This document shows positions 1-25,294 of a stretch of DNA of 64,000 bases, piece after piece. The position numbers were made by a program, and so were the translations under genes. Numbering within the stretch: position 1 is the stretch's first letter; each line of letters opens with the position of its first letter. The notes beneath the pieces are model-generated. The model had not been told where the DNA came from. It did no database searches and saw only the letters and a program-made list of their open reading frames with translations. The DNA is from an uncultured Rhodospirillaceae bacterium (GTDB lineage: Bacteria > Pseudomonadota > Alphaproteobacteria > GCA-2731375). The DNA is taken from the NCBI GenBank assembly GCA_964631725.1, contig CAZVYX010000016.1, forward strand, positions 36,773 through 100,772. The letters run 5' to 3'.

Positions 1-1
1 A

Positions 2-6194: not shown

Positions 6195-6201
6195 AGCCGC
6201 G

Positions 6202-6229
6202 CCCGACACGGGCCGCGCGCCGGTGTCGG
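6202..6229. terminator. GC-rich hairpin between the convergent cytochrome genes (putative bidirectional terminator)
   Basis: Inverted repeat CCGACAC(N13)GTGTCGG lies immediately after the 2391-6194 stop and before the 3' end of 6243-7607. Confidence 0.35.
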
Positions 6230-6242
6230 TAGGAATCCGCCG

Positions 6243-7607
6243 CTACGGAATGAGGCTGCCGAACGCCTGCAGGGCGGCGGTGAACTGTTTCGAATCGTAG
6301 TTGTCGTCGCTTTCGAGCGCCTTGTAGCAGGCGTCCAGCGCCTTCTGCAGCGCCGCCCGCTGGGTCTTGTCCAGGGCGCCGATGTTGCCCATCGCCGCCA
6401 TGATGGTACCGAGCGACATGGTCGCCTGTTCGGCACCGGAATAGTCGGTGTACTGGTTGTCCAGGCCATATTTCACCGTGCCCTTGAGCAGCGCGGTCAT
6501 GTCGGCCTTGCCGAACTTGTGCGATGAAAAGCGCTTGATCAGTTGCTCGGCGTTCGCGCGCAGGGCCGTGGCCTCTTTTGTCAGATTGCCCTGGCCCTCG
6601 CGGCTTGCCTTATGCAGGGCGAGACCGCGTTGACGAAGCTCCTTGCCAAGCTGTGGATCAAGGTGATTGGTGATCACCTGCAGCATCAGCAGATTGGCAT
6701 CCTGCAAGCGCGGAATACCTGGCCCGAGGCCAACCGTGGTACGCGGCTGCCAGCGCTGCTTATTCAGGCTGCGATGACAGCTGTGACAGTCGAACAGCAC
6801 CAACTCGGGGAACACGCCATCACGCCCCATCTTTGGGTCGAGCAGCGCGTCCAGCATGGTCTTTAGCGCCATCGCCTGGCCGATCGCCCAGACCTGGACG
6901 CCGTTCCAGTTGCCCTTCCGTTTGCGGTAGTCGGCGTCAACCTTGTAGTGCGCCGGCTGCAGCGCCGTGAAGGTGTCGAGCTCGAAACTCATGCGCGGAT
7001 GGCCCGCGCCCATGATGCGGTGGCTGACGAAACGCATTTGGTCACCGAAATGGCACGACAGACATAGCCGCGCCCGTTCGATCGGTTTGGCTGTGGAATA
7101 AAGACCGTTCGCGACGTTGTTCTTGTGTGAGGCGTTGGCCGCGATATGCGCGCCAATCCAGCGTCCGGCCCCGCCATGGCAGGCTTCGCAGCCGACCCCG
7201 TCGGTTATCTGGAAGGTTCGGTGGCGCAGCTTTTTCGGCACATTGTCGGCGTGACAGTCGAGGCAGATGTCGGCGGTATGGGCGTCGGGCAGTCCCAAAT
7301 TCGCGGCAATCTTCTTGGAACGTTTGTTCAGCAGCATGTCGTAGGCCTTGGCGTGCTTGTCCTTGCTCTGCCAGGTCACGAATTCGTTCTGCAGGATCGG
7401 TGAATTGGGCCAACTCTTCACCGCGCCGTGGCAGGTGCTGCCCGCGCAGGATGCAACACCCATATGAAATTCCTTGTCCGCAAGCGGCAATAGCATCTCC
7501 GCCGCCGAGGCTCCAAAACTCATCAACGCGCTGGAAAAAATCGTAAGCGCGCCTAGCAGAATGATTGAGCGCCGCACCGTCACACCCCCCGTGTTTCCCA
7601 GACCCAA
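6243..7607 (-). CDS. Periplasmic multiheme (penta-heme) cytochrome c
   Basis: N-terminal signal peptide (RRSIILLGALTIFSSALMSFGASAAE). Heme motifs CAGSTCH (CX4CH-like), CLDCH, CEACH, CLSCH and CHSCH. Confidence 0.7.
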   Translation of the reverse strand: MGLGNTGGVTVRRSIILLGALTIFSSALMSFGASAAEMLLPLADKEFHMGVASCAGSTCHGAVKSWPNSPILQNEFVTWQSKDKHAKAYDMLLNKRSKKIAANLGLPDAHTADICLDCHADNVPKKLRHRTFQITDGVGCEACHGGAGRWIGAHIAANASHKNNVANGLYSTAKPIERARLCLSCHFGDQMRFVSHRIMGAGHPRMSFELDTFTALQPAHYKVDADYRKRKGNWNGVQVWAIGQAMALKTMLDALLDPKMGRDGVFPELVLFDCHSCHRSLNKQRWQPRTTVGLGPGIPRLQDANLLMLQVITNHLDPQLGKELRQRGLALHKASREGQGNLTKEATALRANAEQLIKRFSSHKFGKADMTALLKGTVKYGLDNQYTDYSGAEQATMSLGTIMAAMGNIGALDKTQRAALQKALDACYKALESDDNYDSKQFTAALQAFGSLIP

Positions 7608-7780
7608 TATTCTGCACGCGGCCGGTTTGCCCGCTCTGCAGGCACCTGAATTGACCCGACGGTGCAGCTAAGCTTCGCACCAAATCCACTGGCCTGACGC
7701 CGCGATTTCGACACCTTGTTCGCGTCGTCACTTCCCTTACTTCGGAATTATGGCATGGCCGCGATGCCATTGCCACCACG

Positions 7781-8626
7781 ATGCGTTTTCAATGTCCGAG
7801 CTACGATTTAGTATTCGCTTTACCGGCCCCTTACCGCTGCGGCATAGTGGCGGACGCATCAAAAAATGACGGCCGCAATGTGACTTGGGATCTATACGTT
7901 GCCATCGTGCTGGTTCTCGCCGCGCCCTTCGTGGGGCGATTTCTTGCCATGCTGGTGGTGCGGTATCCGAACTGGCGCGGCATTTGGTTCGCCCGCTCGG
8001 CTTGTAGTCGCTGCGCCGTACCGCTATCGGTGCGCGCGCAACTTCCGCTTCTTGGCTGGCTTCTTGATGGTGGCCACTGCCCCGCGTGCGGTCAGCGGAC
8101 ACCCGGTCTGGTGCTCCTTTTCGAGATTGCCGCGCTGGCAATCGCCATATGGTCGCTCGCAGTGTTCGACGGCATCGCGGCGGTTTCCGCCGCCATGCTG
8201 GGCTGGCTGCTGATTGCCGCCGCGGCGATCGATCAGCGCACGATGCTGCTGCCTGACAGCTTGACCGCCGCCGCCCTATTGCTGGGATTTGCTGTTGCCG
8301 CCGCCGCCGGTCCCAATGCGTTGTTGAGTGCTCTTGCCGGGGCCGCCGCCGGCTTTGCCGCCTTCGCCCTGATCGGTGCGTTCTTCAGGCGCTTGCACGG
8401 ACACGACGGCCTTGGCCTCGGTGATGCCAAATTGCTGGCGGCGGCGGGCGCATGGGTCGGCTGGCAGTCGCTGCCGTCGTTGGTTTTGATCGCCGCGAGC
8501 ACGGCCATCGTGGTGATCCTATTGACGGGATTGGTAGGTGATGGCGGCATACGGCGGCGGCTACCATTTGGGCCGCACCTGGGATTGGCGGCCTGGCTTA
8601 CCCTGCTCTACCGGCCGTTGCCATGA
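7781..8626 (+). CDS. gspO: Type IV prepilin leader peptidase (A24 family, GspO/PilD)
   Basis: N-terminal tetra-Cys zinc motif (CSRCAVPL...CPACGQ). Conserved GLGDAKLLAAAGAWVGW motif, multiple TM segments. The exact start is uncertain; a later GTG is possible. Confidence 0.8.
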   Translation: MRFQCPSYDLVFALPAPYRCGIVADASKNDGRNVTWDLYVAIVLVLAAPFVGRFLAMLVVRYPNWRGIWFARSACSRCAVPLSVRAQLPLLGWLLDGGHCPACGQRTPGLVLLFEIAALAIAIWSLAVFDGIAAVSAAMLGWLLIAAAAIDQRTMLLPDSLTAAALLLGFAVAAAAGPNALLSALAGAAAGFAAFALIGAFFRRLHGHDGLGLGDAKLLAAAGAWVGWQSLPSLVLIAASTAIVVILLTGLVGDGGIRRRLPFGPHLGLAAWLTLLYRPLP

Positions 8627-8636
8627 GGAGGTGCCG

Positions 8637-10280
8637 TTGACTGCCTCGGCGGTGAAACAACTGATCGACAGTGGTTTGCTTGCCGAGAGCGACCTGGAGC
8701 GCGCGCGCCTTGCCGCCGAGGCGATGTCAACACCGGTGCACAGCGCGCTTGTCGGGCTTGGCCTGGTTGCCGAGGACGCCATGGCCCGCACCCTGGCCGA
8801 CAGTCAGTCGCTGCCGCTGGTCGCTGACAACGACTATCCCGACGAGGCTGTGCTGCCGGACCTATTGACCGAGTCTTTCCTGCGCACCTGCCAGGTGCTG
8901 CCGTTGTCGGCGAATGAGCACACGGTCACGGTGGCGCTTGCCGACCCGCTTGATCGCGATACCATCCGGGCGCTGGAGATGCGCCTCGACCGCAGTGTGC
9001 GGCCGGCTGTCGCCACACCGTCGCAGTTGCGGCGCCATTTTGATCGAATTTACGGCGAAGCCGCCGGCCGCCAGGGCACGGGACCGGGCGAGGAAGGCCG
9101 CGTCTACATCGAGCGATTGCAGGACCAGGTCAGCGACGCCCCGACCGTCAAGCTCGCTAACCGGCTGATCGAACAGGCGGTGATGCAACGCGCCTCCGAC
9201 ATTCACCTGGAGCCGGATGGCGACGATTTGCGGGTGCGATTCCGGATCGACGGCCTGCTGCGCGAGATCCGACGCCTGCCGCTGAGCGACCATGCACCGC
9301 TGATCAGCCGTATCAAGATCATGTCGGGTCTCGACATTGTCGAGCGGCGGTTGCCGCAGGATGGCCGCACGCAGCAAGTGGTCGAAGGCCGCCGCATTGA
9401 TATGCGGGTCTCCTGCCTGCCGATGATGCACGGCGAAGGCATGGTGATCCGGCTGCTGGACCAGAATCGGGCACCATTGGAGCTGGCCGATCTGGGACTG
9501 GACAGCGATCTGCAGGGGCGCCTGGCGGCCGCCCTGGATGGCGGCAGGGGTATCGTGCTGGTGACCGGCCCAACCGGCAGCGGCAAGACCACCACCCTTT
9601 ATGCCGCGCTGCAGCGCTTTAACGACCCGCAAAACAAAATCATTACCGTCGAGGACCCGGTGGAGTTCCAGTTGCCCGGTATCAGCCAAATTCAGGTTCG
9701 GCCCGAGATCGGCCTCGGCTTCAGCCGCGTCTTGCGCTCGGTGCTGCGGCACGATCCGGATACGTTGATGATCGGCGAAATCCGCGATCTGGAAACGGCC
9801 GAGATCGCGGTACAGGCGGCGCTGACCGGTCACCTGGTGTTGTCGACACTGCATACCAACAGCGCGCCTGACGCGCTTACGCGCTTGGCCGACATGGGCC
9901 TCGATCCCTACCGCATCACCGCCTCTGTCGCGGCGGTCGTGGCACAGCGTCTGGTGCGTACCCTGTGCGAACACTGCCGGACGCCGGCCCCCGACGACGT
10001 CAATGGCACCGACGATGTCGGGGGCGGGGCGACAGTTTACGAGGCGGCCGGATGCGAACGGTGCGGCGGCACCGGTTACAATGGACGCACCTTGATCGCC
10101 GAAGTGATGGTTATTGACGAACCTCTGCGCAGCCTGATCATGCAACGTGGGGAGCCGCGGGCGATTGAAAAGGCGGCGCGTGCCGGAGGCCTGCTGCCGA
10201 TGCGCCAGAACGGTCTCGACAAAGTTGCGCAGGGAAAGACGAGCATCGCCGAATTGATGCGCGTGCTGGGGAGCGGCTAG
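8637..10280 (+). CDS. gspE: Type II secretion ATPase GspE
   Basis: Walker A VTGPTGSGKTTTLYAAL. C-terminal tetra-Cys motif CEHCR...CERCGGTGYNGR. GspE N1 domain. Probable TTG start at 8637 preceded by GAGGAGG; the ORF is open from 8538. Confidence 0.9.
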   Translation: MTASAVKQLIDSGLLAESDLERARLAAEAMSTPVHSALVGLGLVAEDAMARTLADSQSLPLVADNDYPDEAVLPDLLTESFLRTCQVLPLSANEHTVTVALADPLDRDTIRALEMRLDRSVRPAVATPSQLRRHFDRIYGEAAGRQGTGPGEEGRVYIERLQDQVSDAPTVKLANRLIEQAVMQRASDIHLEPDGDDLRVRFRIDGLLREIRRLPLSDHAPLISRIKIMSGLDIVERRLPQDGRTQQVVEGRRIDMRVSCLPMMHGEGMVIRLLDQNRAPLELADLGLDSDLQGRLAAALDGGRGIVLVTGPTGSGKTTTLYAALQRFNDPQNKIITVEDPVEFQLPGISQIQVRPEIGLGFSRVLRSVLRHDPDTLMIGEIRDLETAEIAVQAALTGHLVLSTLHTNSAPDALTRLADMGLDPYRITASVAAVVAQRLVRTLCEHCRTPAPDDVNGTDDVGGGATVYEAAGCERCGGTGYNGRTLIAEVMVIDEPLRSLIMQRGEPRAIEKAARAGGLLPMRQNGLDKVAQGKTSIAELMRVLGSG

Positions 10281-10283
10281 GCG

Positions 10284-11507
10284 ATGCCGTGGTTCCAGTA
10301 CCGTGCGGTGGATGCCGGAGATCACGTGGTGGAGGCCTCGATTGAGGCAGACGACCGCGACACGGCGCTGGCGCGGCTGCGCGGCGAGGGCTTGCTGCCG
10401 CTGCGTCTGGACCCTGTCGGCGACGCCGGGGGCCGGTCCTGGCGTGTGCAACTGCGGCGCTGGCTCAGCTACCTCGACCCTGACGCCGGGCGGTTGCCGC
10501 CGCCGGCGATTACCGCCTTCGTGCGGGAGCTCAGTATGCTGCTTGATGCCGGCATTGGCGCCGACCGGGCCTTGCTGATCATCGCCCGCTCGGCGGAACG
10601 GCCGATACTGGCGCAGCTCGCCACCGACCTGCGCCAGCGTGTCCGCGCCGGCGACAGCCTGGCGGATGCGCTCGACCAGGATTCGGGGCACTTCGATGCG
10701 GTGTTCCGTGCCACGGTTCGCGCCGGCGAAGCCGGCAGCGCCCTGACCGATGCGCTGGCGCGCCTCGCGGATTGGCGGGAGCAGCGCGAATATATGCTGG
10801 CTGCGGTCAGGTCAGCGCTGATCTATCCCTGTTTCCTGATCGTCGCGGCGCTGATGTCCTTCCTGGTGCTGCTGCTGTTCGTGGTGCCGCAATTTGAGGC
10901 GCTGTTCCAGCAGACTGGCGCCGAGGTGTCGCTGTTCACCGGCGCCCTGCTCGCTGTTTCCGGCTTTCTGCGCAGCTACCTACCGGTGATCGTCGTATTG
11001 GCGCTGGTGCTCTGGCTGCTCGCGCGCCGGCGCCGCACCGCATGGACCGGCCTCGCGGCGCGGCTGCCGATCTTGCGCGGTTTCCTGCGGAAGGTGGCGA
11101 TTGAGCGCGCGCTTAGCATTATGGCGATCCTTTTTGCCAGCCGTATGCCGGCACCGGCGGCATTGGATTTGGCGGCGGAGGCGGTCGGCGATCCGGGGTT
11201 GGCATCATCGCTGCGGCAGACGGCGGCGCGGGTTCGTGAAGGCGCCCGCCTAAGCGACAGCCTGCGCCGGACCGGCGACTTGCCGGAGCTGGTGGTCGAG
11301 ATGATCTCGGTCGGTGAGGATGCCGGCTCGCTTCAGGAGATTCTGGAGCGCCTTGGCGAGCGACTGCGGGCCGACGTCGAACAGGGCTTACGCCGGCTGA
11401 TCGCGGTGATCGAGCCGGTGCTGATCATTTTGACGGGAATCCTGGTTGCTTCTATCATTCTGACCCTGTTGTCGGCGATCGCGAGCGTTCATGCCCTGGT
11501 ATACTGA
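10284..11507 (+). CDS. gspF: Type II secretion inner-membrane platform protein GspF
   Basis: Duplicated GspF/PilC domains and three TM segments. Located immediately after gspE. Confidence 0.9.
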   Translation: MPWFQYRAVDAGDHVVEASIEADDRDTALARLRGEGLLPLRLDPVGDAGGRSWRVQLRRWLSYLDPDAGRLPPPAITAFVRELSMLLDAGIGADRALLIIARSAERPILAQLATDLRQRVRAGDSLADALDQDSGHFDAVFRATVRAGEAGSALTDALARLADWREQREYMLAAVRSALIYPCFLIVAALMSFLVLLLFVVPQFEALFQQTGAEVSLFTGALLAVSGFLRSYLPVIVVLALVLWLLARRRRTAWTGLAARLPILRGFLRKVAIERALSIMAILFASRMPAPAALDLAAEAVGDPGLASSLRQTAARVREGARLSDSLRRTGDLPELVVEMISVGEDAGSLQEILERLGERLRADVEQGLRRLIAVIEPVLIILTGILVASIILTLLSAIASVHALVY

Positions 11508-11955
11508 AACCGAAATCAGACAGCCGCAAAGGGCGTGTGGTCAGCAAGGCTTCACGCTCATCGAACTGCTGGTTGTTCTGGTCATTCTCGGCCTGCTGAT
11601 TGGTTTGGTGACGCCGACCGTGATCAGCTATCTCGGTCGCGCCAAGATCGATGTGGCTCGCATCCAAATAGACAGCCTGGCGACGGCGCTGGACCTATAC
11701 CGGTTGGATGTCGGCCGCTATCCCAGGCAGGCCGAAGGCCTTGCCGCGCTTACCAGGCGCCCGGCCGGCGAGGAACACTGGAACGGACCCTATCTGAGGG
11801 GCGATGTGCCGCTGGATCCCTGGCACCACGCCTACCTCTACAAGCGGCCGAAGAGCGGTGCCGGCGGTTACAGCCTGCAGAGCCTCGGCGCCGACGGCAA
11901 GGCGGGCGGCGATGGCGAGGATGCCGACATCATGGTCCAGTCGTCTGCGTTATGA
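11491..11955 (+). CDS. gspG: Major pseudopilin GspG
   Basis: Prepilin signal ...QQG|FTLIELLVVLVILGLL and the GspG core (DxxRYP, NGPYL). Confidence 0.9.
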   Translation: MPWYTETEIRQPQRACGQQGFTLIELLVVLVILGLLIGLVTPTVISYLGRAKIDVARIQIDSLATALDLYRLDVGRYPRQAEGLAALTRRPAGEEHWNGPYLRGDVPLDPWHHAYLYKRPKSGAGGYSLQSLGADGKAGGDGEDADIMVQSSAL

Positions 11956-12398
11956 CCGGCCATGATGGGCAGCGCGGCTTCACGCTAATTGAATTGGTCG
12001 TGGTGATTGCGCTGCTGGCACTGGTGGCCGCCATCGCCGCTCCGGCCGCCGGTCGTCTCTTTGATCTATCGTCGTCGGTTGATGACGCCAAACGCCTGGC
12101 GATGGCGATGCGGCAGGCGCGAATGACGGCGATCAGTGAAGGGCAGCCGCAATCTGTCCACATCGATCCGGTGCGCCGCCGTTGGCGACATGGCGACAGC
12201 GTTGGGACATTTGATGGTGCCGCGTCAATTTCCGCCGTGGTGCCGCCCGCCGGGCGCCGTCTGAACGGAGTGTCCGCAATTGTATTCCTGCCTGACGGTA
12301 GCGCCACCGGCGGACGCATCGTGCTGGGCGAGGGCCATCGCCAACAAAGCGTCGCCGTCGACTGGCTGACCGGGACCGTCTCGATTGCCGGCCCGTAG
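11952..12398 (+). CDS. gspH: Minor pseudopilin GspH
   Basis: Starts ATGA-overlapped with the gspG stop. Leader MTGHDGQRG|FTLIELVVV. Confidence 0.75.
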   Translation: MTGHDGQRGFTLIELVVVIALLALVAAIAAPAAGRLFDLSSSVDDAKRLAMAMRQARMTAISEGQPQSVHIDPVRRRWRHGDSVGTFDGAASISAVVPPAGRRLNGVSAIVFLPDGSATGGRIVLGEGHRQQSVAVDWLTGTVSIAGP

Positions 12399-12786
12399 GC
12401 AAGCCGGCTTCAGCCTGCTGGAGGTCTTGGTCAGCCTGGTTGTGGTGGCACTGACGGTTGGCGCCGCCATTGGCGTGTACGGTCAGGCCGCCGAAAGCGC
12501 CGGGCGTGGCGAGCGGGCGCTGCAGGCCTTGATGACGGCGCAATCGCTCCTGGCCGAGCACGGCACGGCCATCCCACTGAAGAGCGGCACCAATTACGGG
12601 AAAACAGAGGCAGGTCTGCGTTGGCGGAGTATCGTCTCACCCTATGAAGGCCTCGACCGGGACCAGATGCGCCGCCTGCCGGTAAAGCCGTTCACCGTCG
12701 GCGTCACCGTTTCCTGGGGTGATGCAAAGGCCCAGTCACTGACGTTGCGGGCCTTGAAGATCACGGAGCCGGCAGATGCCCGATAG
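12385..12786 (+). CDS. gspI: Minor pseudopilin GspI
   Basis: Leader MPARRQAG|FSLLEVLVSLVV; size ~130 aa. Confidence 0.75.
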   Translation: MPARRQAGFSLLEVLVSLVVVALTVGAAIGVYGQAAESAGRGERALQALMTAQSLLAEHGTAIPLKSGTNYGKTEAGLRWRSIVSPYEGLDRDQMRRLPVKPFTVGVTVSWGDAKAQSLTLRALKITEPADAR

Positions 12787-13384
12787 GCGGCGACAGGCCG
12801 GCTTCACGCTGCTGGAATTGGTTGTCGGCATCGCCCTTCTGGCCCTGATTACCACGCTGCTGGTCAACGTCCTCGGTACCGGTATCGCCGCTACGAAGCA
12901 AGTGGACCGGCGCACCGAGCGGATTGAGCGGGCGCACCACGTACATAGGCTGTTGCGCGAGCGGCTTGAAACGGTGCGTCCCCTGGACTGGGAAATTGGC
13001 GAGGGGCGACAGCAGGTATTCGCGGGCGAGGCTGACACCATGCGGTTCATCACCACGGCGCCGCCCTGGCCCGACCTTGGCGGCCTGGTGCTGGATTGGC
13101 TGCACCTGAGCGGCGGTCGTCTGGTGCTGACGGAACGGCGCTTTATAGGGGCCGACGACGCGCTGAACGGCAATGATGCCGAAAATGGCACGACGCTGGC
13201 GCGCGACATTGGCACGCTGCATATCGACTATTATGGCCAGGTGGAGCGCCGGCGCGCGGCTTGGCACGGCTTCTGGAACCAGCGGGAACTACCGGACCTG
13301 ATCCGCGTACGAATCGCTTGGCGCGATGGCGAAAAATGGCCCGACCTTGTCGTGCATCCCCGGCTCGCACGACAGCCGAGGTGA
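12776..13384 (+). CDS. gspJ: Minor pseudopilin GspJ
   Basis: Leader MPDRRRQAG|FTLLELVVGIALL; size ~200 aa. Confidence 0.75.
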   Translation: MPDRRRQAGFTLLELVVGIALLALITTLLVNVLGTGIAATKQVDRRTERIERAHHVHRLLRERLETVRPLDWEIGEGRQQVFAGEADTMRFITTAPPWPDLGGLVLDWLHLSGGRLVLTERRFIGADDALNGNDAENGTTLARDIGTLHIDYYGQVERRRAAWHGFWNQRELPDLIRVRIAWRDGEKWPDLVVHPRLARQPR

Positions 13385-13390
13385 CGGTGA

Positions 13391-14320
13391 ATGGTTGACA
13401 TGAGCAACATCAGGCAGCGACAAGGTAGCGTGCTTTTGGTGGTGTTGTGGCTGCTGGTGATGCTGGCATTGATTGCCCAAGGCGTGGCGCAACGGTCGCG
13501 CAGCCACCTAACGCTGGCGCGGGCCCAGATCGATCTGGCGCAGGAGCGCCTGCGCGCGCAGGCCGGCGTGTTGCACGGGGCGTTGCTGCTGCTTGATCGG
13601 GGGCGGCCTCTACCGCCACGCCAAAGCCTGACAGGCGGGAATGCGCCAGCCATTATCGGCGCCGCGGTTGATATCGAGATCATTGACGAATGCGGCCGCG
13701 TCGACCTGAACACCGGCCACGCCGACATGATCGCCGCCCTGTTCAACGGTTTTGGGCTGGCCGATCGTTCCAGGCAACAGGCAAACGCGGTCCTCGACTA
13801 CCGCGATCCCGGCAGCCGGCCCCGGCCGCAGGGCGCCGAACATGACGCCTACCGCGCCGCCGGGCGCTTCGACGGCCCCCGCAACGGCCCATTCGAGACG
13901 GTTGCCGAACTGCACCAGGTGTTGGGTCTCGACGCTGAAACCGTGGCGCGGCTGACACCGTACTTTACCGTTGACTGCCTCAATGCTGGCGTCGACCCGA
14001 TGGCCGCCAGCGCGCCGCTGCTGCGGCTGTTGCCCTCGTGGGCCGCGCCTGACTCGCTGCAGAGCTTTCTGCATGCCCGAGATGACGCGTCACGCAACGG
14101 CGGCGGCGGGATGCGTTGGCCGGCCGGACTGGGGAAGTATGCGGAGCCCTCGGACGGTCACGCCTACGGTATCAGGGCGACGACCCGCGGCCCGGCCCCC
14201 GCCGTTAGCTGGTCGGCGGTGGTGTGGCTTGGTGGCGGCGATGGCCGGCCACTTGCATTCCGCACCTGGGAACCGGATAGGACGAATATCCTCGTTGCCA
14301 AGGACGGTGACGATAATTGA
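13391..14320 (+). CDS. gspK: Minor pseudopilin GspK
   Basis: N-terminus QRQGSVLLVVLWLLVMLALIA, typical of GspK. Size ~300 aa; follows gspJ. Confidence 0.7.
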   Translation: MVDMSNIRQRQGSVLLVVLWLLVMLALIAQGVAQRSRSHLTLARAQIDLAQERLRAQAGVLHGALLLLDRGRPLPPRQSLTGGNAPAIIGAAVDIEIIDECGRVDLNTGHADMIAALFNGFGLADRSRQQANAVLDYRDPGSRPRPQGAEHDAYRAAGRFDGPRNGPFETVAELHQVLGLDAETVARLTPYFTVDCLNAGVDPMAASAPLLRLLPSWAAPDSLQSFLHARDDASRNGGGGMRWPAGLGKYAEPSDGHAYGIRATTRGPAPAVSWSAVVWLGGGDGRPLAFRTWEPDRTNILVAKDGDDN

Positions 14321-14395
14321 CGGTGGTGGTTTTAATCTCGCGTCGAATCAAGATAGGATAGTCATTTACTGAACTCGTACGTCTGAGGGGAATAG

Positions 14396-16075
14396 ATGTT
14401 CGTGAACGGTCGGTTGCTGGTATTGGGTATCCTTCTGGGTACGCTATCCGGATGTGCTTCGCTTGATGTCGCCGCTTGGTTCGGCGGTGAAGCTAAAGAC
14501 ACCCCGCGCCCACCGACGCAACAGCAGCAGGCCGCAGCCTCGAACGAAGCGCCAGATGGCTGGATTGTCGACACGGTGAGTGGCTGTGCGACCAGCAACC
14601 CGCAGCCGACGGCAGGCGAAAGCATTCGCTGGTTCGGCGATTGCAGTAACGGCAAACTAAGCGGTCACGGCACCTTGATATGGTACCGGGACGGCCACGA
14701 AACCGAGCGCAACGAAGGCGGCTTCCGGGGCGGAGAACTGCATGGCGAGGTGGTGACGACGTTTGACGATGGCACCTATATCGTCGGCGAATATGTTGAC
14801 GGGCAGCGCAACGGCAATTTCATGATACGCCGGCCTGACGGCTCGCACCTGCACGCGCTCTACGAGGGCGGAGAACTGTCGGCACGGCGCGTCGCCAGCG
14901 CCGGGGAAGTCGATGCCTGGCTGATGGCCCGGGCCCGCCAGGTCGCCGAGGCGGCCGAGGCCGCGCCTGGGCGCGAAGTGCGCCAAGTGGCCGCCGCGCC
15001 GGTATCGCAAACGATTGCGAACAGGCCGCCGCCCGCCGCAAGGGTCGACGCAACGAAGGCCGTGCCGGTTGTGTCAGTGCCACAACAGACGGTAGTAGCC
15101 GTCACGCCAGCGTCCAGCCCCGCTCCAGTATCATCACCCTTGGGCAAAGCTAATGGCGACCGTGGCAATATTGTCGTGTCTTCTGCTTCCGTGGCGAACG
15201 CCTACCAGCCCGCCGCCTACTACCCGCGTGCGATGTACCCGCTCGACAGCGTCACCCAGACCGCCAGGCTATATGCCGGCCGCGATGGTCCGTGGGTTGC
15301 CGGTCCACGCACTGGTGGCGCGTCGCCGGCCGGCGGCGGCACCATCGTCATTTCCTCTGCCTCGGTGACGACCGAGTATGCGAACCGGGGCGGCGCCGTG
15401 CCGCGGTCGTACCATGTGCCGCAACAGCTCGCCATGGCCACCTACCAACCGGTCGCCCGTTCGCCGCGCGCCGTAATCGAACTTGAAAACACCGCTCAGT
15501 CCGCCGTGACATACGCTGGCCGCGCCGCCGGTGCGCCGCCTCGCCGATCCAGGGATCTGACACCGTCGGTATCGCCTGATACGTTGTTCAGCCAGGGTTA
15601 TCGGCTGGAACTCGCCGGTCAACGGCAGGCCGCGGCACGCGTTTATGACGAGGTCCTGCTGCAGCATCCATCGGCACCATCGGCGCTGTTGGCGAATGCC
15701 CGTCTGGTGCAGCTGCGCCAGCCGCAACCGGTACAACGGATGCAAGCCTCGGTGGTCGCGGTCAACTCGCCTACGCCGAACGGCTCACCGCGCCCGGCGT
15801 CATTGGCACCCAGCCGTGCCTCGCCGGCATCGGCGCTACATCGCCAAGTTTGCAGTCGCGGTGGCCTCTATGAAAGTGACAGCGGCTGGTGCGGCACCGT
15901 GACCGGTGAGCAGGGGCCATACTACTGGGTCCGCGTCGACGGGGTTCATTTGCGCGGCTTTGCCACCATCGGCATCACCCGCTCGACCTGCACGGGCAAC
16001 AACTTCCTGAACTGGTTCTCGCTCGGCTCGTCGGTCAAGGTGCCGAAACAGTGCATGACATTTCAGGCGGGCTGA
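14396..16075 (+). CDS. Lipoprotein with MORN repeats, an Ala/Pro-rich linker and a Cys-containing C-terminal domain (candidate T2SS-associated protein or cargo)
   Basis: Lipobox LGTLSGC. Repeated YxDGxxxEGxxxxGxxHG units (GHGTLIWYRDGHETERNEGGFRGGELHGEVV...). Low-complexity A/P/S region. C-terminal Cys residues. Confidence 0.55.
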   Translation: MFVNGRLLVLGILLGTLSGCASLDVAAWFGGEAKDTPRPPTQQQQAAASNEAPDGWIVDTVSGCATSNPQPTAGESIRWFGDCSNGKLSGHGTLIWYRDGHETERNEGGFRGGELHGEVVTTFDDGTYIVGEYVDGQRNGNFMIRRPDGSHLHALYEGGELSARRVASAGEVDAWLMARARQVAEAAEAAPGREVRQVAAAPVSQTIANRPPPAARVDATKAVPVVSVPQQTVVAVTPASSPAPVSSPLGKANGDRGNIVVSSASVANAYQPAAYYPRAMYPLDSVTQTARLYAGRDGPWVAGPRTGGASPAGGGTIVISSASVTTEYANRGGAVPRSYHVPQQLAMATYQPVARSPRAVIELENTAQSAVTYAGRAAGAPPRRSRDLTPSVSPDTLFSQGYRLELAGQRQAAARVYDEVLLQHPSAPSALLANARLVQLRQPQPVQRMQASVVAVNSPTPNGSPRPASLAPSRASPASALHRQVCSRGGLYESDSGWCGTVTGEQGPYYWVRVDGVHLRGFATIGITRSTCTGNNFLNWFSLGSSVKVPKQCMTFQAG

Positions 16076-16081
16076 TAAGTA

Positions 16082-17302
16082 ATGCCCAATCTATTTGCTT
16101 TGCTGAAGATGATGCGCCGGGCCGCGCCAGCCGTGGTGGCCGTCTCGGTCTTGGCCGCGATCATCCAGCAGCCGGTCAACGCGCAGGTGTCCCGGTCCGA
16201 CTACGCGGCCAGGGTCTCCGCCATCACCAATAGCATTGTTGCCGGCGCCGCGGGCGGCACGGGCAGTGGCGACCGTCCAGCTATATTTTTTGACCTTAAC
16301 GGCGCCAGTGGCGTGTCTGCCGGCGACGACGCCGTGATAGCGGGTGCCAGACGTCTCTATGAGATCTATCGCGCCCTCGGCGGCCCGCGGCTCGGCCAGA
16401 ATGCCTTTTACGAACGCAAGGACGGCCGCATCTATATTGGTCTTGAAGGTCAAGGTGGACGCTGGGTCGATGGCGGCGTACAGGCCTTGGAGGTCCTTCG
16501 CGAGCAGTTGGTCGAAGCGGCCGTGGCACAGCAGCCGGTTGCGCCTGCCGAACAGCCGGTTTGTCGAAGCTTTGAGTGCCTGCTCTTGGCCAACTACAAG
16601 GGCGACGCGCCGCTCGCCGGTTTCGTGCCACGGGGTCAGACCCAGGTTCTGGAGCTGTCGGGCAAGGGCTTCAGTGATGCGGGCGGCCCACCTGTCGTGC
16701 TGACCCCGGCGGCGTTTTACGTCGATAGCGTGGCATTTGTAAGCGCCGGGGAAGTTCAGGTTACCCTCTTGGTCGATGAAAGCGCCACGCTGGGCGCCAA
16801 GAGTCTGCTGGTATTCAATCGAGGCCGGGCCTTCCGAAGCGTCGGCCGCTACCAGGTGCATGTTGTCGCCAGCATCGAGGAGCTGGAGGCGATCGCCGCC
16901 GGCACTGTGCCCCTTCCTGGGACCACCATTCCACCAGCCGATAGTGCGTTATATCAGGGCGGTGTCGGACGGGATGACGATTACGGCAACGATGCAAAGA
17001 CGGCCACCGATGTTGCCGATGGCCTCTCTGGTCGACTGGAACGGCCGGGCGATCTGGACGTCTTCCGCCTCGTGGTGCCTCGGAACGCGACGGTCGAAAT
17101 CACTTCAACCGGGCCGTCGGATTTGGCGGCGGAGCTGCGCGACGCCGTCGATACCCTGATCGCCGCTGACGATGACGGCGGCGCGCGCTACAACTTCCGA
17201 ATTTCGCGCCAATTGGCCGCGGGCACCTATTTTGTCACCGTCAGTCATTGCTGTGGCGGTACCGGCAGCTACCGTTTTACGGCGACGCAGAAGCCGCAGT
17301 AG
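16082..17302 (+). CDS. Secreted protein with a C-terminal pre-peptidase (PPC)-like domain (candidate T2SS cargo)
   Basis: Signal peptide ...AVVAVSVLAAIIQQPVNAQV. C-terminal DVFRLVVPRNATVEITSTGPSDL...DDDGGARYNFRISRQLAAGTYFVTVSH matches the PPC/collagenase-type beta-sandwich pattern. Confidence 0.5.
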   Translation: MPNLFALLKMMRRAAPAVVAVSVLAAIIQQPVNAQVSRSDYAARVSAITNSIVAGAAGGTGSGDRPAIFFDLNGASGVSAGDDAVIAGARRLYEIYRALGGPRLGQNAFYERKDGRIYIGLEGQGGRWVDGGVQALEVLREQLVEAAVAQQPVAPAEQPVCRSFECLLLANYKGDAPLAGFVPRGQTQVLELSGKGFSDAGGPPVVLTPAAFYVDSVAFVSAGEVQVTLLVDESATLGAKSLLVFNRGRAFRSVGRYQVHVVASIEELEAIAAGTVPLPGTTIPPADSALYQGGVGRDDDYGNDAKTATDVADGLSGRLERPGDLDVFRLVVPRNATVEITSTGPSDLAAELRDAVDTLIAADDDGGARYNFRISRQLAAGTYFVTVSHCCGGTGSYRFTATQKPQ

Positions 17303-17350
17303 CGGTTATGGGTGTCCCAAATCCTGTAATTTGCCGGTACTAGAAGAGCT

Positions 17351-19519
17351 CTACTGGCTCTTGGTCTCGCGTGACGCTTGCCCAAATAGCGCATCCCCCT
17401 TGGCAATGCGCCGTGGCTGGCGGATGCCGATGCGTTCACGCTGCATCAGGGCAAGGAATTTGTCCTTAAGTGTTGTTGTCACAACCCTCGCGTCGCTGGG
17501 ACTGCTGATGATGATCGGGCGGATCAGCACCACGAGTTCGGTGCGTCTGGTTGCCTTGGCGTTGCTGCCGAACATGGCGCCGATCACCGGTAGTTCGTGA
17601 AGCAGCGGAAGCCCGCTCCTGCCGTCCGACGCCGTTTCGCGGATCAGGCCGCCCAGCATGACCGTCTCGCCGCTCGCGATCGTCACGGTGCTGAGCAGGC
17701 TCCGGTTCTGGATCGTCGGCGAGTCGATGGTCGATGTGGTGGTACCGGTAACGTCGCTGACTTTCTGGACGATGTCCATCGATACCATGCCGGAGGCATT
17801 GATGCGTGGCTTTACCTCCAGGCTAACACCGGTCTGGCGGTATTCGACGGTATTCACGATTAACGGACTATCGGTGACGGCGCTGGTTGTGTTCTGGGTG
17901 ATGATCGGCACCTCATCACCGACATTCAGGTTGGCCACCTTATTGTTGACCACCAGAATATTCGGCGAGGAAATAACGTTTACTTCTGTCAGTTCCGACA
18001 GGGCGTCGATGACCAGCTTGGTACGGGTGAGGCTGTTCAGGATGAAGTTGAATCCCGGCACGATCGGTGACGCCACGGGATCGACGATCGAGCCGCCGGC
18101 AGCCGCCGTCTGTGTGCCACGGGTCAGGGTGAAAAGGCCTTCGTCGGTGATGTTCAGACCACCGTTCGAGACTGCATACTGGATGCCGTAGCGTAGCTGA
18201 TCGCGTAGATTAACCTCGAAAACGCTGGTCTCAATCATCACCTGCAGGGGCGGAATGTCGAGTTGCGCCAGCAGATCCTCGATCATGCGAAACCGTTCCG
18301 GCACGGCCGAAATCAGGAGGGCGTTACGCTCGGCATCGACGGCGATGGTCGGGTTATCATCGCCGGCCCGCGGCGGCGCGGTCGGAGCGTCACCTCCCCC
18401 GGCGCTGGCATTTGCGATGGGGCTGGCACCGCTGGCCGGGGTCGAAGTACCGACGATCTCACGCAACGCCGCGGCAATATTCTGTGCCTCACCGTATTGA
18501 ACGTAGTAGACGAACAATCGCCTTTCGGTTGGACTCAGGTTGCGGTCGAGGCGATAGATCCAATTACGCGCCTCCTCGATGTGGGCGAAATTGCGCGACA
18601 GCACCATGATGGCATTGATCCGGTCAATGGGGATGAACTCGGTGGCGATGCGGGCGCCCGGCGTACGTCCGGATGCACCAAAGATGGCATTGAGCTCCTT
18701 AAGTACATTGCGTGCATCGGCGTTTTGCAGACCCAGCAACAGCACGTGTTTGCCGGCCATTTGATCAACATCGAAGATGTCGACGGTGTCGCGGGCAAGC
18801 TGCAGCGTCGGCCCGTCACCTGCAATCAGAATGACGTTGCGTTTGGTGTCGCTGTAAGCGATCGCACGCTCGGGCAGCAATGGCGTGAGGATCTTGGCCA
18901 TCTCCTCGGCGGCAACGAACCGCATCGGGAAGGCGACAAAGGCGGCCGTGCCCTTTGTCTTATCGGCAGTCGCCGCCCTGCCGCCCAAGCGGTTCGGAGC
19001 GCCGGTATCGCGGGAGACCCGGTAGACGCCCTGGTACATGACGAGCCGAGCGCCAACCGACTTCAAAACCCCTTCGAAGATTGGCAGAACATCGGCGCGA
19101 CGGACCTGCCGGTTGGTAGACAGGGTGATAGTGCCGCTGACGCCCGGGTCGACAAAGAAATTGTGCCCCAACACCTCGCCAATGACGAAGCGGGTGACTT
19201 CCCGGACGTCGGCATTGCGGAAATTTAGAGTGATGTCGGCCGGACCGTCATCCGGGCGTTGCTGCCGGGCTGGCGGCTGCTTGCCCCTGTAAATCTCGTC
19301 AATTCGCGGCTGGCCTTTCGACGCCAGCTGCACGCCCGCCGGTTGCTGTGTCGCCCCCGGAACCGGGGTCATCGGTGGCGTTGCAGTCAAGGCTTGCGGC
19401 GTTGCGGAGACGGCCGGGGCGCTGGCATCGGGTGGTAGCTGCGATGGCTCCCTGACCGGCCGCGCGGTACAGCACGTCACAACGATTGCGATTGACAGCA
19501 CCAAGAGTCTCGTAATCAC
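17351..19519 (-). CDS. gspD: Type II secretion outer-membrane secretin GspD
   Basis: N0 domain (ITLNFRNADVREV...), N1-N3 domains, secretin core (VISSPNILVVNNKVANLNVGDEVPIIT), S-domain tail. Confidence 0.9.
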   Translation of the reverse strand: MITRLLVLSIAIVVTCCTARPVREPSQLPPDASAPAVSATPQALTATPPMTPVPGATQQPAGVQLASKGQPRIDEIYRGKQPPARQQRPDDGPADITLNFRNADVREVTRFVIGEVLGHNFFVDPGVSGTITLSTNRQVRRADVLPIFEGVLKSVGARLVMYQGVYRVSRDTGAPNRLGGRAATADKTKGTAAFVAFPMRFVAAEEMAKILTPLLPERAIAYSDTKRNVILIAGDGPTLQLARDTVDIFDVDQMAGKHVLLLGLQNADARNVLKELNAIFGASGRTPGARIATEFIPIDRINAIMVLSRNFAHIEEARNWIYRLDRNLSPTERRLFVYYVQYGEAQNIAAALREIVGTSTPASGASPIANASAGGGDAPTAPPRAGDDNPTIAVDAERNALLISAVPERFRMIEDLLAQLDIPPLQVMIETSVFEVNLRDQLRYGIQYAVSNGGLNITDEGLFTLTRGTQTAAAGGSIVDPVASPIVPGFNFILNSLTRTKLVIDALSELTEVNVISSPNILVVNNKVANLNVGDEVPIITQNTTSAVTDSPLIVNTVEYRQTGVSLEVKPRINASGMVSMDIVQKVSDVTGTTTSTIDSPTIQNRSLLSTVTIASGETVMLGGLIRETASDGRSGLPLLHELPVIGAMFGSNAKATRRTELVVLIRPIIISSPSDARVVTTTLKDKFLALMQRERIGIRQPRRIAKGDALFGQASRETKSQ

Positions 19520-19629
19520 GCGGCCCTTCCATCGAATTTAGAGCGCTTCAGCGGTAATCGGAAATGCTCTGATTTGTGCAATTTGATAGCCTAGGTGCTA
19601 TCGCGGCGGGGTTCAATGGACAAAGAGGC

Positions 19630-20130
19630 CTAGTTGCCACGGACATTCGCTTTGCCGGGATACGGCGTAAGGGCATGTTCCAGCCGTTCGTCGGCGCGGG
19701 ACAAAACCAGGCGGCGTGGCGAGATGGAAAGCATGCGCCAGCCGTCCAGATCGCCCCCCTCCTCAACCGTGATGTGCCGGCCGTTGGCGTCGACCAGCAG
19801 CGCGAGGCGCTGCTTTGCGGTGACGACGACGCCGCTCAACCGGTAGCGGCCCAACAGCATGCGATCGTCGCCGGCGGACGGTAGTGCGGCGGAGGGACGG
19901 CGCCGGCTGGCATTGAACAGTGGCCGTTCGATTACCGCGGAGAAAGTCTCACGCAGCGGCGGCGAGATAAGTCGGCTCAACGGCGAGCCGAAGGTGGCAT
20001 CTTGAGGCTGCACGACTGGCGACGGCTCCGGCAACCAGCGATCGAACGGCAGCAGCCATGGCGCCGCCGCCAGAAGCAGCAGAGCGGCGACCGCCGCCGC
20101 AACCGTGGTGTTGCTGGCGCGTGCCGTCAT
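19630..20130 (-). CDS. Small single-pass T2SS component, GspC HR-domain/PilP-like (possibly GspN)
   Basis: One N-terminal TM, then a beta-rich domain (RYRLSGVVVTAKQRLALLVDANGRHITVEEGGDLDGWRMLSISPRRLVL) resembling the PilP/GspC-HR fold. ATGA overlap with upstream gspM. Confidence 0.4.
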   Translation of the reverse strand: MTARASNTTVAAAVAALLLLAAAPWLLPFDRWLPEPSPVVQPQDATFGSPLSRLISPPLRETFSAVIERPLFNASRRRPSAALPSAGDDRMLLGRYRLSGVVVTAKQRLALLVDANGRHITVEEGGDLDGWRMLSISPRRLVLSRADERLEHALTPYPGKANVRGN

Positions 20131-20690
20131 GGGCTTGCCCGTTGCTGGAGCGCGACAACGTCGAGGTCGACCGACAGCCGGCGATCGCTGCCGATGCTCC
20201 GGCTTCCCAACGCACGGACGCGCAGGCGTTCGACCGCAATCAGCGGCAAACCGAACTCCAGATTGTGGAGGAGCTTCTGCAAACCGGAAATATCGACCCT
20301 GAGATCGGCGTGTAGCGAGATGCGCCGATAGCCCTGTTCGGCGCTGGTCGGTAACACCTCCAGGCTGGCCAGCTCCGCCGAAGCGGCACGCAACGCCGCG
20401 CTGAGATGCCGCTGCAGGCTGGCTTGGGCTTCGCCCTCGCTGCCTGGGGCAAGGATTGCCGCGGCACCGTCGGCACGGTTCAGCAGCTCGGCCATGTGCT
20501 GGTGCCGCGCCGCCTGCCGCGCCGCCGCTTCGCCGACCTGCCGACGATAATCGCGGGCCTCATCCAGGGCCGCGAAACCATTCCGGTAGGCCAGCGTCAG
20601 CAGCAGAACCACCAACAATAGGGCAATACCCGCTCCGGCGTACCTGCCCAGCCGAACCAGGGTGGCTTTTTGCTCCGCCGTACCCGCCAC
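20127..20690 (-). CDS. gspM: Type II secretion protein GspM
   Basis: ~187 aa, single TM followed by a periplasmic domain. Positioned between gspL and the gspC-like gene. Confidence 0.55.
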   Translation of the reverse strand: MAGTAEQKATLVRLGRYAGAGIALLLVVLLLTLAYRNGFAALDEARDYRRQVGEAAARQAARHQHMAELLNRADGAAAILAPGSEGEAQASLQRHLSAALRAASAELASLEVLPTSAEQGYRRISLHADLRVDISGLQKLLHNLEFGLPLIAVERLRVRALGSRSIGSDRRLSVDLDVVALQQRASP

Positions 20691-20705
20691 GACCCGCCGC
20701 CGCCG

Positions 20706-21758
20706 CTAGCGGCCCACTCTCGCCAGGTTGAAGACGAAGCGTTCGTTGTCGTTGCCTTGGTTGCGCACCACTGGTGCGGCGTAGGTCACCGCACTGAAGC
20801 CAGGCGAGGCCTCCAGTAGCTGCACCAAGCGCACGTTGCTGTCGCTAATGCCTTCGATCACAACGTCACGGCCGTCGATGGTCAGGGCGGTGAGCCAGGT
20901 ACCGTCAGGCAGGGTAGCCGACAGCCGGTTCAGCGTGTCGATCGCCTCGGGGTGGCGGCGCAGGTCGACCAAGGATTTGAACAGGTTGCCTTGCGCCGCT
21001 TGGCCGTCGGCGGTGCCGCTCGCCAGCAACTCGCCGCGTAATTCGTTCGTCGCGTCAGTGATCGCCCCGGCGCGATGCTGCAGCCAGAGTGGCGGCGAGA
21101 TCAGCGCCGCCACGAGGGCCGTCAACAGGGCAAAGCGGTGCCACCGGTACGGTCCTGTCCGCGACCTTGTCAGGTCGTCCGGCAAATCCAGGGCGACCCC
21201 GTTCCCACCGAGATCCGCGGTCAGCCGCACAACATTCAGGTTGTGCGCCCATAGGCCCGCCAGCAGCGGCCGCAGCGCCTGGCGCTGGGTAATCATCACC
21301 TGCGCCGTTATCTCTCTCGTATCGCCGGGGATCGTCTCGAAGCGCCAACCGTAGGTGACATCGTCGGCGCGAAACGGCGTATGACGCTCGATCTCAAAGC
21401 CGATCGCACCCTTGAGGTCGGACTGCGGCGTGGTCCGCGGCAACCGGAAGTCGCGCCGCAGCAGCCGGTCCTCGTCCAGGTGCAACGCAACCGGTAGGCT
21501 ATCTTGGGCAGTCAACCGGGCAAGCGCCTCGTCGCCTTCAATGACCCGTGCCTCGCCCGTGGAATTGAATTGCAGGCGGGCCAGCGGCGCCGATTTCAGC
21601 CGCTCGCTGACCACCGCGATATCGCCCTCCAGGTTGACCAGGATGCGTGGTGGCGACAAGGCATCGAGATTGCCCAACAGACCGCCCAACCAGTTTTGCC
21701 ACTTGTTGCCGCCGCTCGGTAGAGAGGGTGTCGATGCCACTAAAATGCCCTTTAGCAT
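20706..21758 (-). CDS. gspL: Type II secretion protein GspL
   Basis: ~350 aa with a cytoplasmic actin-like domain, one TM (FALLTALVAALISPPLWL) and a periplasmic domain. First gene of the minus-strand gsp operon. Confidence 0.65.
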   Translation of the reverse strand: MLKGILVASTPSLPSGGNKWQNWLGGLLGNLDALSPPRILVNLEGDIAVVSERLKSAPLARLQFNSTGEARVIEGDEALARLTAQDSLPVALHLDEDRLLRRDFRLPRTTPQSDLKGAIGFEIERHTPFRADDVTYGWRFETIPGDTREITAQVMITQRQALRPLLAGLWAHNLNVVRLTADLGGNGVALDLPDDLTRSRTGPYRWHRFALLTALVAALISPPLWLQHRAGAITDATNELRGELLASGTADGQAAQGNLFKSLVDLRRHPEAIDTLNRLSATLPDGTWLTALTIDGRDVVIEGISDSNVRLVQLLEASPGFSAVTYAAPVVRNQGNDNERFVFNLARVGR

Positions 21759-22027
21759 TGTGCGACAATGCCACGAAGAGGGCAGGCCGCATCCCCTTCA
21801 CAACTTAAGCTACATTGTCCGACCGGCGCAAGACCGCTCGACGAAGCGCTTCGGTCCGGCCGGCTGCTTCCACTGGATTGACCAGCGGGCTGGGGTGCCA
21901 GGCAGCCCCGAGGCATCATGGGGCGGTGCCGGCAGACGGCCATTCGGCAAGCGTTCCCGCTAATTTGGCTCGCCTCGAGACTGGTACCATGGCAATCGGC
22001 GCGATGTTCCGCATGTACCCGGCCCTG

Positions 22028-25189: not shown

Positions 25190-25294
25190 TCTGCGCCGAA
25201 GATCCAACGGCATAGAGGAGCCCCATGAATATTGGAGGCGCCGCCGATCCAGCGGGTTTGTCAGCAAAGGCCATTTATGTTGCTGGAAAGATTT

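Follow-up and report, generated by a model that had tools for sequence, protein, structure and literature searches.

The 64-kb stretch of DNA analysed here (contig CAZVYX010000016.1 of an uncultured Rhodospirillaceae bacterium; G+C 56–67%; hereafter the window) carries the genes of a type II secretion system (T2SS), and all 12 core T2SS components are present at 7781–21758. The genes were identified from a listing of open reading frames (ORFs) together with Pfam and NCBIfam scans. The original prediction had described a complete T2SS with split orientation, and every gene that it named could be recovered at its place. The genes gspO-E-F-G-H-I-J-K and two extra genes make up one unit on the + strand, while gspL, gspM, the gene for a protein of 166 amino acids (aa) and gspD make up a second unit on the − strand. 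The two units converge on the 48 bp between 17302 and 17351.

The + unit opens with the prepilin peptidase gene gspO (7781–8626; Peptidase_A24 2.1e-20 and A24_N_bact 3.2e-14 in Pfam), which adjoins gspE in the related loci L017, L018, L020 and L022 and is absent in L016 (L numbers denote the loci compared below). The next gene, gspE, encodes the secretion ATPase (about 8637–10280; T2SSE 2.9e-135, 451 bits, and MshEN). Its product scored 545 bits with the NCBIfam model TIGR02533, under the equivalog cut-off of 630. The gspE ORF can be read from 8538 as an in-frame upstream extension; the likely start is 8637, and the equivalent start is used by the gene callers on identical metagenome contigs (L009). 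Then follow gspF for the inner-membrane platform protein (10284–11507; T2SSF 3e-51, two repeats), gspG for the major pseudopilin (11491–11955; T2SSG 3.4e-35, N_methyl) and the minor pseudopilin genes. These are the XpsH-like gspH (11952–12398; PF12019 GspH, N_methyl; NF047827 XpsH 2e-24, below cut-off), the XpsI-like gspI (12385–12786; N_methyl; NF047828 XpsI 7.2e-19), gspJ (12776–13384; N_methyl; NF006453 T2SS protein J 7e-19) and gspK (13391–14320; T2SSK_1st 3e-13; NF037980 GspK 3.8e-19). A protein identical to GspJ carries the precomputed label PF11612 T2SSJ. The two extra genes encode a 559-aa MORN lipoprotein (14396–16075, 75 bp after gspK) and a 406-aa PPC-domain protein (16082–17302, 6 bp further on). 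The original prediction had the two halves of the cluster converging on two inserted genes. The convergence is real, but with gaps of 75 and 6 bp the genes are the tail of the + unit and not an insertion.

The − unit runs from gspL (20706–21758) through gspM of the XpsM type (20127–20690; T2SSM_b 5.6e-19; NF040576 T2SS_GspM_XpsM 89.8 bits, cut-off 60) and the gene for the 166-aa protein (19630–20130; NF041470 XpsN 2.4e-9) to the secretin gene gspD (17351–19519; TIGR02517 428 bits, cut-off 351; N0, Secretin_N and Secretin domains). The stop of gspM and the start of the 166-aa gene overlap by 4 bp. GspL gave a single type of match in the Pfam scan (PilN 2.1e-11, residues 275–342), and a direct phmmer search of GspL against the PDB sequences returned nothing, so that a profile was needed. 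The profile, built from seven orthologues, matched PilM (3jc8_Ma, 1.9e-9) at positions 82–206, PilN (2.3e-5) at 216–322 and, weakly, the EpsL cytoplasmic domain (4pht, 0.094). Judged by these matches, GspL has a PilM-like cytoplasmic domain, a transmembrane (TM) helix and a PilN-like periplasmic domain.

GspD and GspM passed their equivalog cut-offs, the NCBIfam matches of XpsH, XpsI, GspJ and GspK all fell under theirs, and Xps-specific models were the best matches for H, I and M. A type IV pilus or Tad machine could be ruled out, as GspD is assigned at the equivalog level, GspK is present and H, I and M are of the Xps type. A scan of 6000–22300 for promoters and terminators did no better than with shuffled sequence, and the operon structure is therefore deduced from gene spacing alone.

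The 166-aa GspC equivalent and the secretin

The Xps architecture has the gene order L-M-N(C)-D, a GspC (XpsN) without PDZ domain, a lipidated secretin without pilotin and no true GspN (PMC7777525, PMC11981180). XpsN is the GspC of Xanthomonas, since renamed XpsC, and combines an HR domain with a second periplasmic (2P) region, which is a single helix and not a PDZ domain (PMC11981180, PMC7777525). The cluster in the window shares most of these features with the Xanthomonas cluster (xpsE-F-G-H-I-J-K-L-M-N(C)-D): the best matches of H, I and M are Xps models, the order is L-M-N(C)-D, GspC is a PDZ-less member of the XpsN family, the secretin is predicted to be lipidated, and a pilotin, GspA/B and a true GspN are all lacking from it. 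We also took up the T2SS of Caulobacter as the nearest alphaproteobacterial model; its canonical gspC-to-N order (PMC2996285) rules it out as the closest in organisation.

The 166-aa protein aligns with the XpsN model NF041470 through residues 62–145, which fall on profile positions 64–147 of 260, and leaves positions 148–260 unmatched. For homologues of the protein, PF28060 XpsN is given as a precomputed Pfam label; the assignment to the XpsN family draws on the NCBIfam match and on these labels. Neither a PDZ nor a T2SSC match in Pfam could be found even at E-values up to 10, and direct phmmer against the PDB sequences gave no match, so that profiles were needed here as well. A profile of 40 sequences of the family found 6hcg_e (labelled OutC, 0.029) and the GspC chain 2lnv (0.65) as its best PDB sequence matches, both aligned to the beta-domain part of the profile.

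An AlphaFold2 model of the protein, built on an alignment of 13 sequences, begins with a TM helix at 7–21; a linker of low confidence leads to a beta domain of six strands at 96–153, with pLDDT values of about 90 at residues 90–150. In the sequence, the TM helix is placed at about 7–27, and a conserved FxAxxERPLFxASRR stretch is found at 63–77. The chain ends 13 residues past the beta domain, leaving the protein without PDZ domain, coiled coil or 2P helix, and a hidden Markov model scan of all six frames found no second HR-like ORF in the window. A Foldseek search of the PDB with the model returned PilP (3jc8_Pa) as the top match. The GspC-HR of enterotoxigenic Escherichia coli (3oss_C) followed with a TM-score on the target of 0.74 (rmsd 2.2 Å over 62 columns), together with PulC-HR (6hcg_e, 0.69), PilP (2ivw, 2lc4, 4av2_M), LspC (7oio) and GspB (4wfw), the last with a target TM-score of 0.52 and weaker than GspC-HR. 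The matches form a coherent set, and the probabilities of those to secretion-system proteins were mostly 0.96–1.00 (0.91 for LspC). The model thus has the HR fold. The original prediction of a single-pass GspC candidate with a PilP/HR-like beta domain and neither PDZ nor coiled coil, in a cluster with no PDZ-type GspC, agrees with all of this: GspC-HR and PilP are both among the top structural matches, and the sequence falls in the family of the Xanthomonas GspC. PilP itself could be rejected, as the protein has no Cys at all and hence is not a PilP-type lipoprotein, and its neighbours are T2SS genes; the fold alone is shared.

The gene, or a short homologue of it, lies between gspM and gspD in every related locus that we examined. 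From its sequence and its place, we assign the 166-aa protein to the XpsN/GspC family, as an HR-only form that fills the xpsN slot. It resembles the GspC proteins EpsC, OutC and PulC, whose HR domains contact GspD N0 (3OSS, 6HCG), in being a bitopic inner-membrane protein with HR as its closest structural match. It differs from them in the lack of a PDZ domain and of a T2SSC match in Pfam and in an HR identity of only about 18–20%, and from GspC of the XcpP type in the lack of a coiled coil. Deletion of the PDZ domain of EpsC in Vibrio cholerae abolished the secretion of one substrate only, VesB (PMC12369372), which makes an HR-only GspC functionally plausible.

To see how common such proteins are, we searched 1.84 billion representative proteins with a profile of the family and obtained 2590 relatives at E ≤ 1e-3, of which 162 were found at E ≤ 1e-10. 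Most of the best 150 relatives are short: 103 are ≤190 aa long and 14 reach the size of XpsN (≥230 aa), and in 87 there are ≤25 residues after the matched region. The motif R[PN][LIVM]F is kept in 139 of the 150. The short relatives are unnamed or called 'hypothetical protein' in their sources, and one relative of 256 aa is labelled 'general secretion pathway protein N'. One short member (189 aa) sits in a colinear O-E-F-G-H-L-M-N-D-I-J-K cluster (L020) that does not have the two extra genes. Judged by these sequences, the HR-only GspC is a common and under-annotated variant and no peculiarity of this locus. The original prediction had seen a minimal coupling of inner membrane and secretin; GspC is indeed reduced to its HR domain, but most of what seemed to be missing is ordinarily missing in the Xps subtype, and HR-only forms are common in metagenomes.

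The GspD ORF starts with MITRLLVLSIAIVVTCCTARP, after which come an 80-residue linker rich in Pro, Ala and Gln and, from residue 98, the N0 domain. There is a Cys at about residue 17. A lipobox-like Cys after a hydrophobic signal sequence is conserved in all eight GspD homologues with a readable N-terminus; in all eight the next residues are TA[RQG][PA], and seven of them have the Pro. GspD is therefore predicted from its sequence to be a liposecretin of the XpsD/HxcQ design, with which it shares the signal peptide with lipobox Cys, the long flexible linker before N0 and the absence of a pilotin gene from the cluster. XpsD has been found experimentally to be lipidated, and HxcQ is self-piloted via its lipid anchor (PMC7777525, PMC3542185), whereas lipidation is a prediction here and the linker, of about 80 residues, is rich in Pro, Ala and Gln. 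Some metagenome gene calls (L013, L014) place the start of GspD 49 codons late, giving 673 instead of 722 aa. The late start drops signal peptide and lipobox, and the liposecretin nature is missed in such annotations.

No pilotin (gspS) and no GspN were found within the window, as the original prediction had noted, and neither gspA nor gspS lies near the cluster. The absence of gspS is to be expected if GspD carries its own lipid anchor, and a true (AsmA-like) GspN is absent from xps clusters too.

The two companion genes and the related loci

The proteins of the window have exact copies on metagenome contigs of up to 369 kb, and related loci were found in metagenome-assembled genomes titled uncultured Rhodospirillaceae, Kiloniellales, Acetobacterales and Alphaproteobacteria. 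An L-M-N-D unit converging on PPC-lipoprotein-K-J-I-H-G-F-E(-O) was seen in L003/L018, L004/L017, L006, L007, L008, L016 and L022; across the loci of this arrangement, protein identities fall to about 35%. L019 has the same convergent arrangement as far as the locus reaches, which is to within gspG. In L019 and L022, which represent a more distant lineage, a FecR-domain protein of 939–989 aa and COX15/CtaA and CutA1 genes flank gspL (L019:3400–6219, L022:17438–20407).

The 559-aa protein has an LSGC lipobox; among its homologues, 13 have a signal sequence at the N-terminus, and 12 of these share the lipobox. MORN repeats could be identified at about residues 75–165 (matching MORN1 structures, 1e-4), followed by a low-complexity middle part of variable length and a weak TPR-like stretch at about 392–437; the homologues vary between 472 and 826 aa in overall length. 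In 16 of the 17 homologues there are four Cys within the last 100 residues, and no Pfam or NCBIfam model matched this C-terminal four-Cys domain. The domain (about 90 residues, in window region 15800–16075) is the best-conserved part of the protein, with the pattern GWCG.VT...GF..IGI.RS.CTG..F..WFS.G..V.VP..CM.

The 406-aa protein has a signal peptide and a C-terminal PPC domain (2.5e-5, Pfam), and direct phmmer against the PDB sequences found nothing. Its AlphaFold2 model (pLDDT 76) shows an alpha/beta domain at 38–150, for which there was no PDB match, an Ig-like beta-sandwich at 178–262 and a PPC/collagen-binding-like domain at 309–405. The last resembles the collagen-binding domains of ColG and ColH and the PPC domains of Bacillus collagenases, with Foldseek TM-scores of 0.67–0.78. 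All 35 homologues (17 of the 559-aa and 18 of the 406-aa protein) are unnamed or 'hypothetical'.

In every related locus inspected, representing about ten lineages, the pair abuts the 3' end of gspD. This holds in L015 (Kiloniellales), where the pair converges on gspD though gspE-K are not adjacent, and in L023, where the T2SS genes within the reach of the locus (gspH-I-J-K-L-M-N, then, after an acyltransferase gene, gspD) are colinear on one strand and the pair still converges on gspD. The linkage of the embedded genes to the T2SS that the original prediction had suggested is thus borne out by conserved synteny beside gspD, and an 'inserted island' could be discarded, as the pair is kept in about ten lineages. 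The pair is, by this synteny, a conserved companion of the secretin and not an insertion.

Where gspK does not precede the pair, in L015 and L023, a gene for a CHASE2-guanylate/adenylate cyclase adjoins it (L015:5436–7520, L023:136–2403), which hints at regulation by cyclic nucleotides. In L016 (11399–13090), three genes lie between the PPC gene and gspD; they encode a small protein resembling PA14_33160, a sigma factor of the ECF type and a protein of 285 aa, possibly an anti-sigma factor.

Cytochrome neighbours, possible cargo and a proposed mechanism

On its gspO side the cluster borders on cytochrome genes. Divergent from gspO lies a gene for a c554-like cytochrome (6243–7607, − strand; Cytochrome_C554 5.8e-10) with four CXXCH motifs and one CX4CH. 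Next to it is the gene for a 1271-aa cytochrome (2379–6194, + strand) with a signal peptide, 10 CXXCH motifs, a C-terminal LVIVD beta-propeller (LVIVD 1.2e-17) and a partial ExtM match in NCBIfam (4.3e-18). Directly upstream, at 447–2378 (+ strand), a 643-aa protein with a signal peptide and a C-terminal ...LILVF is encoded, a probable outer-membrane beta-barrel (NF033939 porin family 4e-5, weak), whose start was taken from the L021 gene call. The c554-like gene is found beside gspO or gspE in L016, L017, L018 and L022 at 59–86% identity (86% in L017/L018), and a homologue of the 1271-aa cytochrome lies beside it in L016 (76%) and L022 (69%). Cytochrome genes beside gspO or gspE were found in five lineages, among which the identity of the T2SS proteins has dropped to 36–54%, and this upholds the link of the T2SS to the adjacent cytochrome module in the original prediction. 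In a further lineage, L006, there is a different, 12-haem cytochrome on the gspL side of the cluster. Across these loci the adjacency is conserved and not universal.

In the comparison of the window with L016, L017, L018 and L022, the cytochromes are more conserved than the adjacent T2SS proteins; in L022 they have 69% and 59% identity, compared with 36% for GspF and 51% for GspD. This suggests that the cytochromes are under stronger constraint or have a separate transfer history. In L021, from the same species, a seven-gene + strand block (L021:444–13804, corresponding to a stretch from before window base 1 to 6194) extends the cytochrome module upstream. It begins with an 826-aa Pyr_redox/cNMP-binding/4Fe-4S protein, a 276-aa protein and a 582-aa multi-haem cytochrome, and continues with a 132-aa protein, a 660-aa protein (weak HbpS-like match), the 643-aa barrel and a 1267-aa cytochrome. 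From its gene content the block looks like an operon for extracellular electron transfer or a redox enzyme.

Further genes of the window lie beyond gspL. Directly upstream of gspL (22028–24475, − strand) is the gene for a P-type ATPase of heavy metals, probably of copper, whose metal-binding domains are YHS/TRASH and HMBD; related loci do not have it at this position. At 25232–26530 (+ strand) a BNR/Sortilin-type beta-propeller (F510_1955-family glycosylhydrolase model, 5e-32) is fused to a cytochrome c domain with one haem at the C-terminus. Cobalamin biosynthesis takes up a large cluster at 30156–50714, with genes for a CobT-like phosphoribosyltransferase, CobB/CobQ amidotransferases, CbiD, CobK, a CbiG-methylase fusion, CobN (1254 aa), CobW and an aminotransferase, and is followed at 50723–58720 by GDPD, glycerol-3-phosphate dehydrogenase and an Opp-type ABC transporter.

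We consider it likely that the cluster encodes a complete, probably functional T2SS of the Xps subtype, with the companions and the cytochromes as its candidate cargo, and propose the following mechanism. GspO would process the pseudopilins GspG-K, and GspE, F, L and M would make up the inner-membrane platform. The 166-aa GspC would dock on GspL/M with its TM helix and the juxtamembrane RPLF segment, its roughly 60-residue disordered linker would span the periplasm, and its HR beta domain would bind GspD N0. As it has no substrate-tuning second periplasmic region, neither PDZ nor helix, it would be compatible with a narrow substrate range. GspD, lipidated at its N-terminus, would pilot itself to the outer membrane via Lol, with no pilotin required. 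The MORN lipoprotein and the PPC protein, presumably co-transcribed after gspK, would be conserved dedicated substrates or surface partners, and the multi-haem cytochromes with signal peptides would be likely further cargo, like MtrC and OmcA for the Shewanella T2SS. The protein contacts, the lipidation and the identity of the secreted proteins in this scheme are what we infer from the genes and from the precedents.

Cargo encoded beside the machine has precedents. In Hxc-LapA, a substrate gene reportedly lies next to the T2SS genes. The Shewanella T2SS brings MtrC and OmcA to the cell surface (PMC1974784), and ElpS of Caulobacter is a lipoprotein substrate of the T2SS encoded beside the machine (PMC2996285). 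Both likewise tie a T2SS to multi-haem cytochromes or to lipoprotein substrates. The present case differs from Shewanella in that the link is one of synteny, the cytochromes are not MtrC/OmcA homologues and the 1271-aa cytochrome is not a lipoprotein. Going by synteny, signal peptides and these precedents, it is plausible that the companions and the 1271-aa cytochrome are cargo. For the companions, the signal sequences, the PPC domain and the co-orientation after gspK favour dedicated substrates or surface proteins, and the 559-aa lipoprotein is proposed to be a surface-exposed substrate or an anchor.

Several observations weigh against the proposed reading. The XpsN score of the 166-aa protein (37 bits) is far under the equivalog cut-off of 400 bits; the Pfam scans gave this protein no match, because the PF28060 model was missing from the Pfam set scanned; and Foldseek gave the HR domain, which has only about 60 residues, weak E-values (5e-3 to 0.7), as is expected for so small a domain. 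A canonical gspC may be encoded elsewhere in the genome. No recognisable enzyme domain was detected in either companion with Pfam, NCBIfam or Foldseek, and the companions, seen as substrates on account of their signal sequences, the PPC domain and synteny, could equally be accessory. The available flanks of L015, L007/L008 and L023 contain no cytochrome, and the porin-like gene directly upstream of the 1271-aa cytochrome also fits a porin-cytochrome arrangement independent of the T2SS. Expression, assembly and secretion by the system are predictions from its genes.

The cytochromes might be next to the T2SS by happenstance of descent, with the T2SS serving unrelated substrates and the cytochromes being placed via the porin-like protein. 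We regard this as a real though lesser possibility. Besides the barrel gene, positioned as in porin-cytochrome conduits, and the loci without a cytochrome in their flanks, the separate transcription of the cytochromes and the T2SS genes would fit it. Yet the adjacency is kept in five lineages with GspF identities down to 36% and GspD down to 51%, and it survives the loss of gspO in L016 and the insertion of a TPR gene at the junction in L022. L006 has its 12-haem cytochrome on the other side of the cluster.

It is rather unlikely that the MORN lipoprotein and its PPC partner serve the machine as accessory components and are not cargo. As such they might, for example, stabilise or gate the secretin, one as a lipoprotein of the outer membrane and the other in the periplasm, or they might stand in for the missing second periplasmic domain of GspC and recruit substrates such as the cytochromes. 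A role of this kind would agree with the way in which the pair keeps converging on gspD at its 3' end across about ten lineages, L015 and L023 included, with the co-orientation and tight spacing of both genes after gspK, with the protein-interaction repeats (MORN, TPR-like) of the lipoprotein and with the lack of a detectable catalytic domain. However, the HR-only XpsN-type cluster of L020 does without the pair, which is thus not generally needed, and PPC domains are typical of secreted proteins. The widely varying length of the lipoprotein's middle part would suit a surface protein better than a component of the machine; moreover, the pilotins that are known are small proteins, and the secretin is predicted to have a lipid anchor itself.

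That the 166-aa protein is a GspB-like scaffold or PilP-like, with the true GspC (PDZ or helix) encoded elsewhere, is very improbable: it has the TM, linker and HR architecture described for GspB/OutB, whose HR binds secretin N0 (PMC9239104), GspB 4wfw and PilP are among its Foldseek matches and the genes were searched within the window, but its sequence falls in the XpsN (= GspC) family and not in that of GspB, the HR domains of GspC and PulC match better (0.74 and 0.69 against 0.52), its gene sits in the gspC/xpsN slot overlapping gspM with no gspA or gspS partner nearby, it lacks the Cys of a PilP-type lipoprotein, and it is the sole HR protein of the cluster, with no second HR-like ORF in the window and none called in the flanks of the related loci examined.

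The Xps-type T2SS with its companions and cytochromes as candidate cargo is thus the reading that we prefer, and in it the machine itself is ordinary. Most of its 'missing parts' are explained by the Xps subtype, which has XpsN for its GspC and a liposecretin for its secretin, so that an apparently GspC-less and pilotin-less T2SS turns out to be a known Xps design. What goes beyond the known Xps model, as seen in Xanthomonas, is the alphaproteobacterial host; an XpsN-like protein of 166 instead of about 260 aa that has lost the single-helix 2P region, a loss common among its relatives; the split into two convergent units with gspO inside the cluster; the two conserved extra genes after gspK as companions of gspD; and the multi-haem cytochrome genes next door.

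The HR-only GspC/XpsN proteins form a large and mostly unannotated family, in which nature has in effect repeated the PDZ-deletion experiments, and are of interest for the choice of substrates by T2SSs. The lipoprotein/PPC pair, which accompanies gspD in many lineages of the Alphaproteobacteria, is a concrete candidate either for a dedicated substrate or for an accessory module of a new kind. A bolder and rather unlikely idea is that the cytochrome operon, the HR-only Xps T2SS, the MORN lipoprotein and the PPC protein form one export-and-anchoring unit, which would serve extracellular electron transfer by bringing the giant cytochrome with its 10 haems and beta-propeller to the cell surface, with the pair as a tether or adaptor replacing the recognition domain of GspC. 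If true, it would concern Rhodospirillales/Kiloniellales-like Alphaproteobacteria, a group not known for extracellular electron transfer. The conserved synteny with a multi-haem cytochrome operon is in any case a lead for T2SS-dependent extracellular electron transfer in uncultured Alphaproteobacteria.

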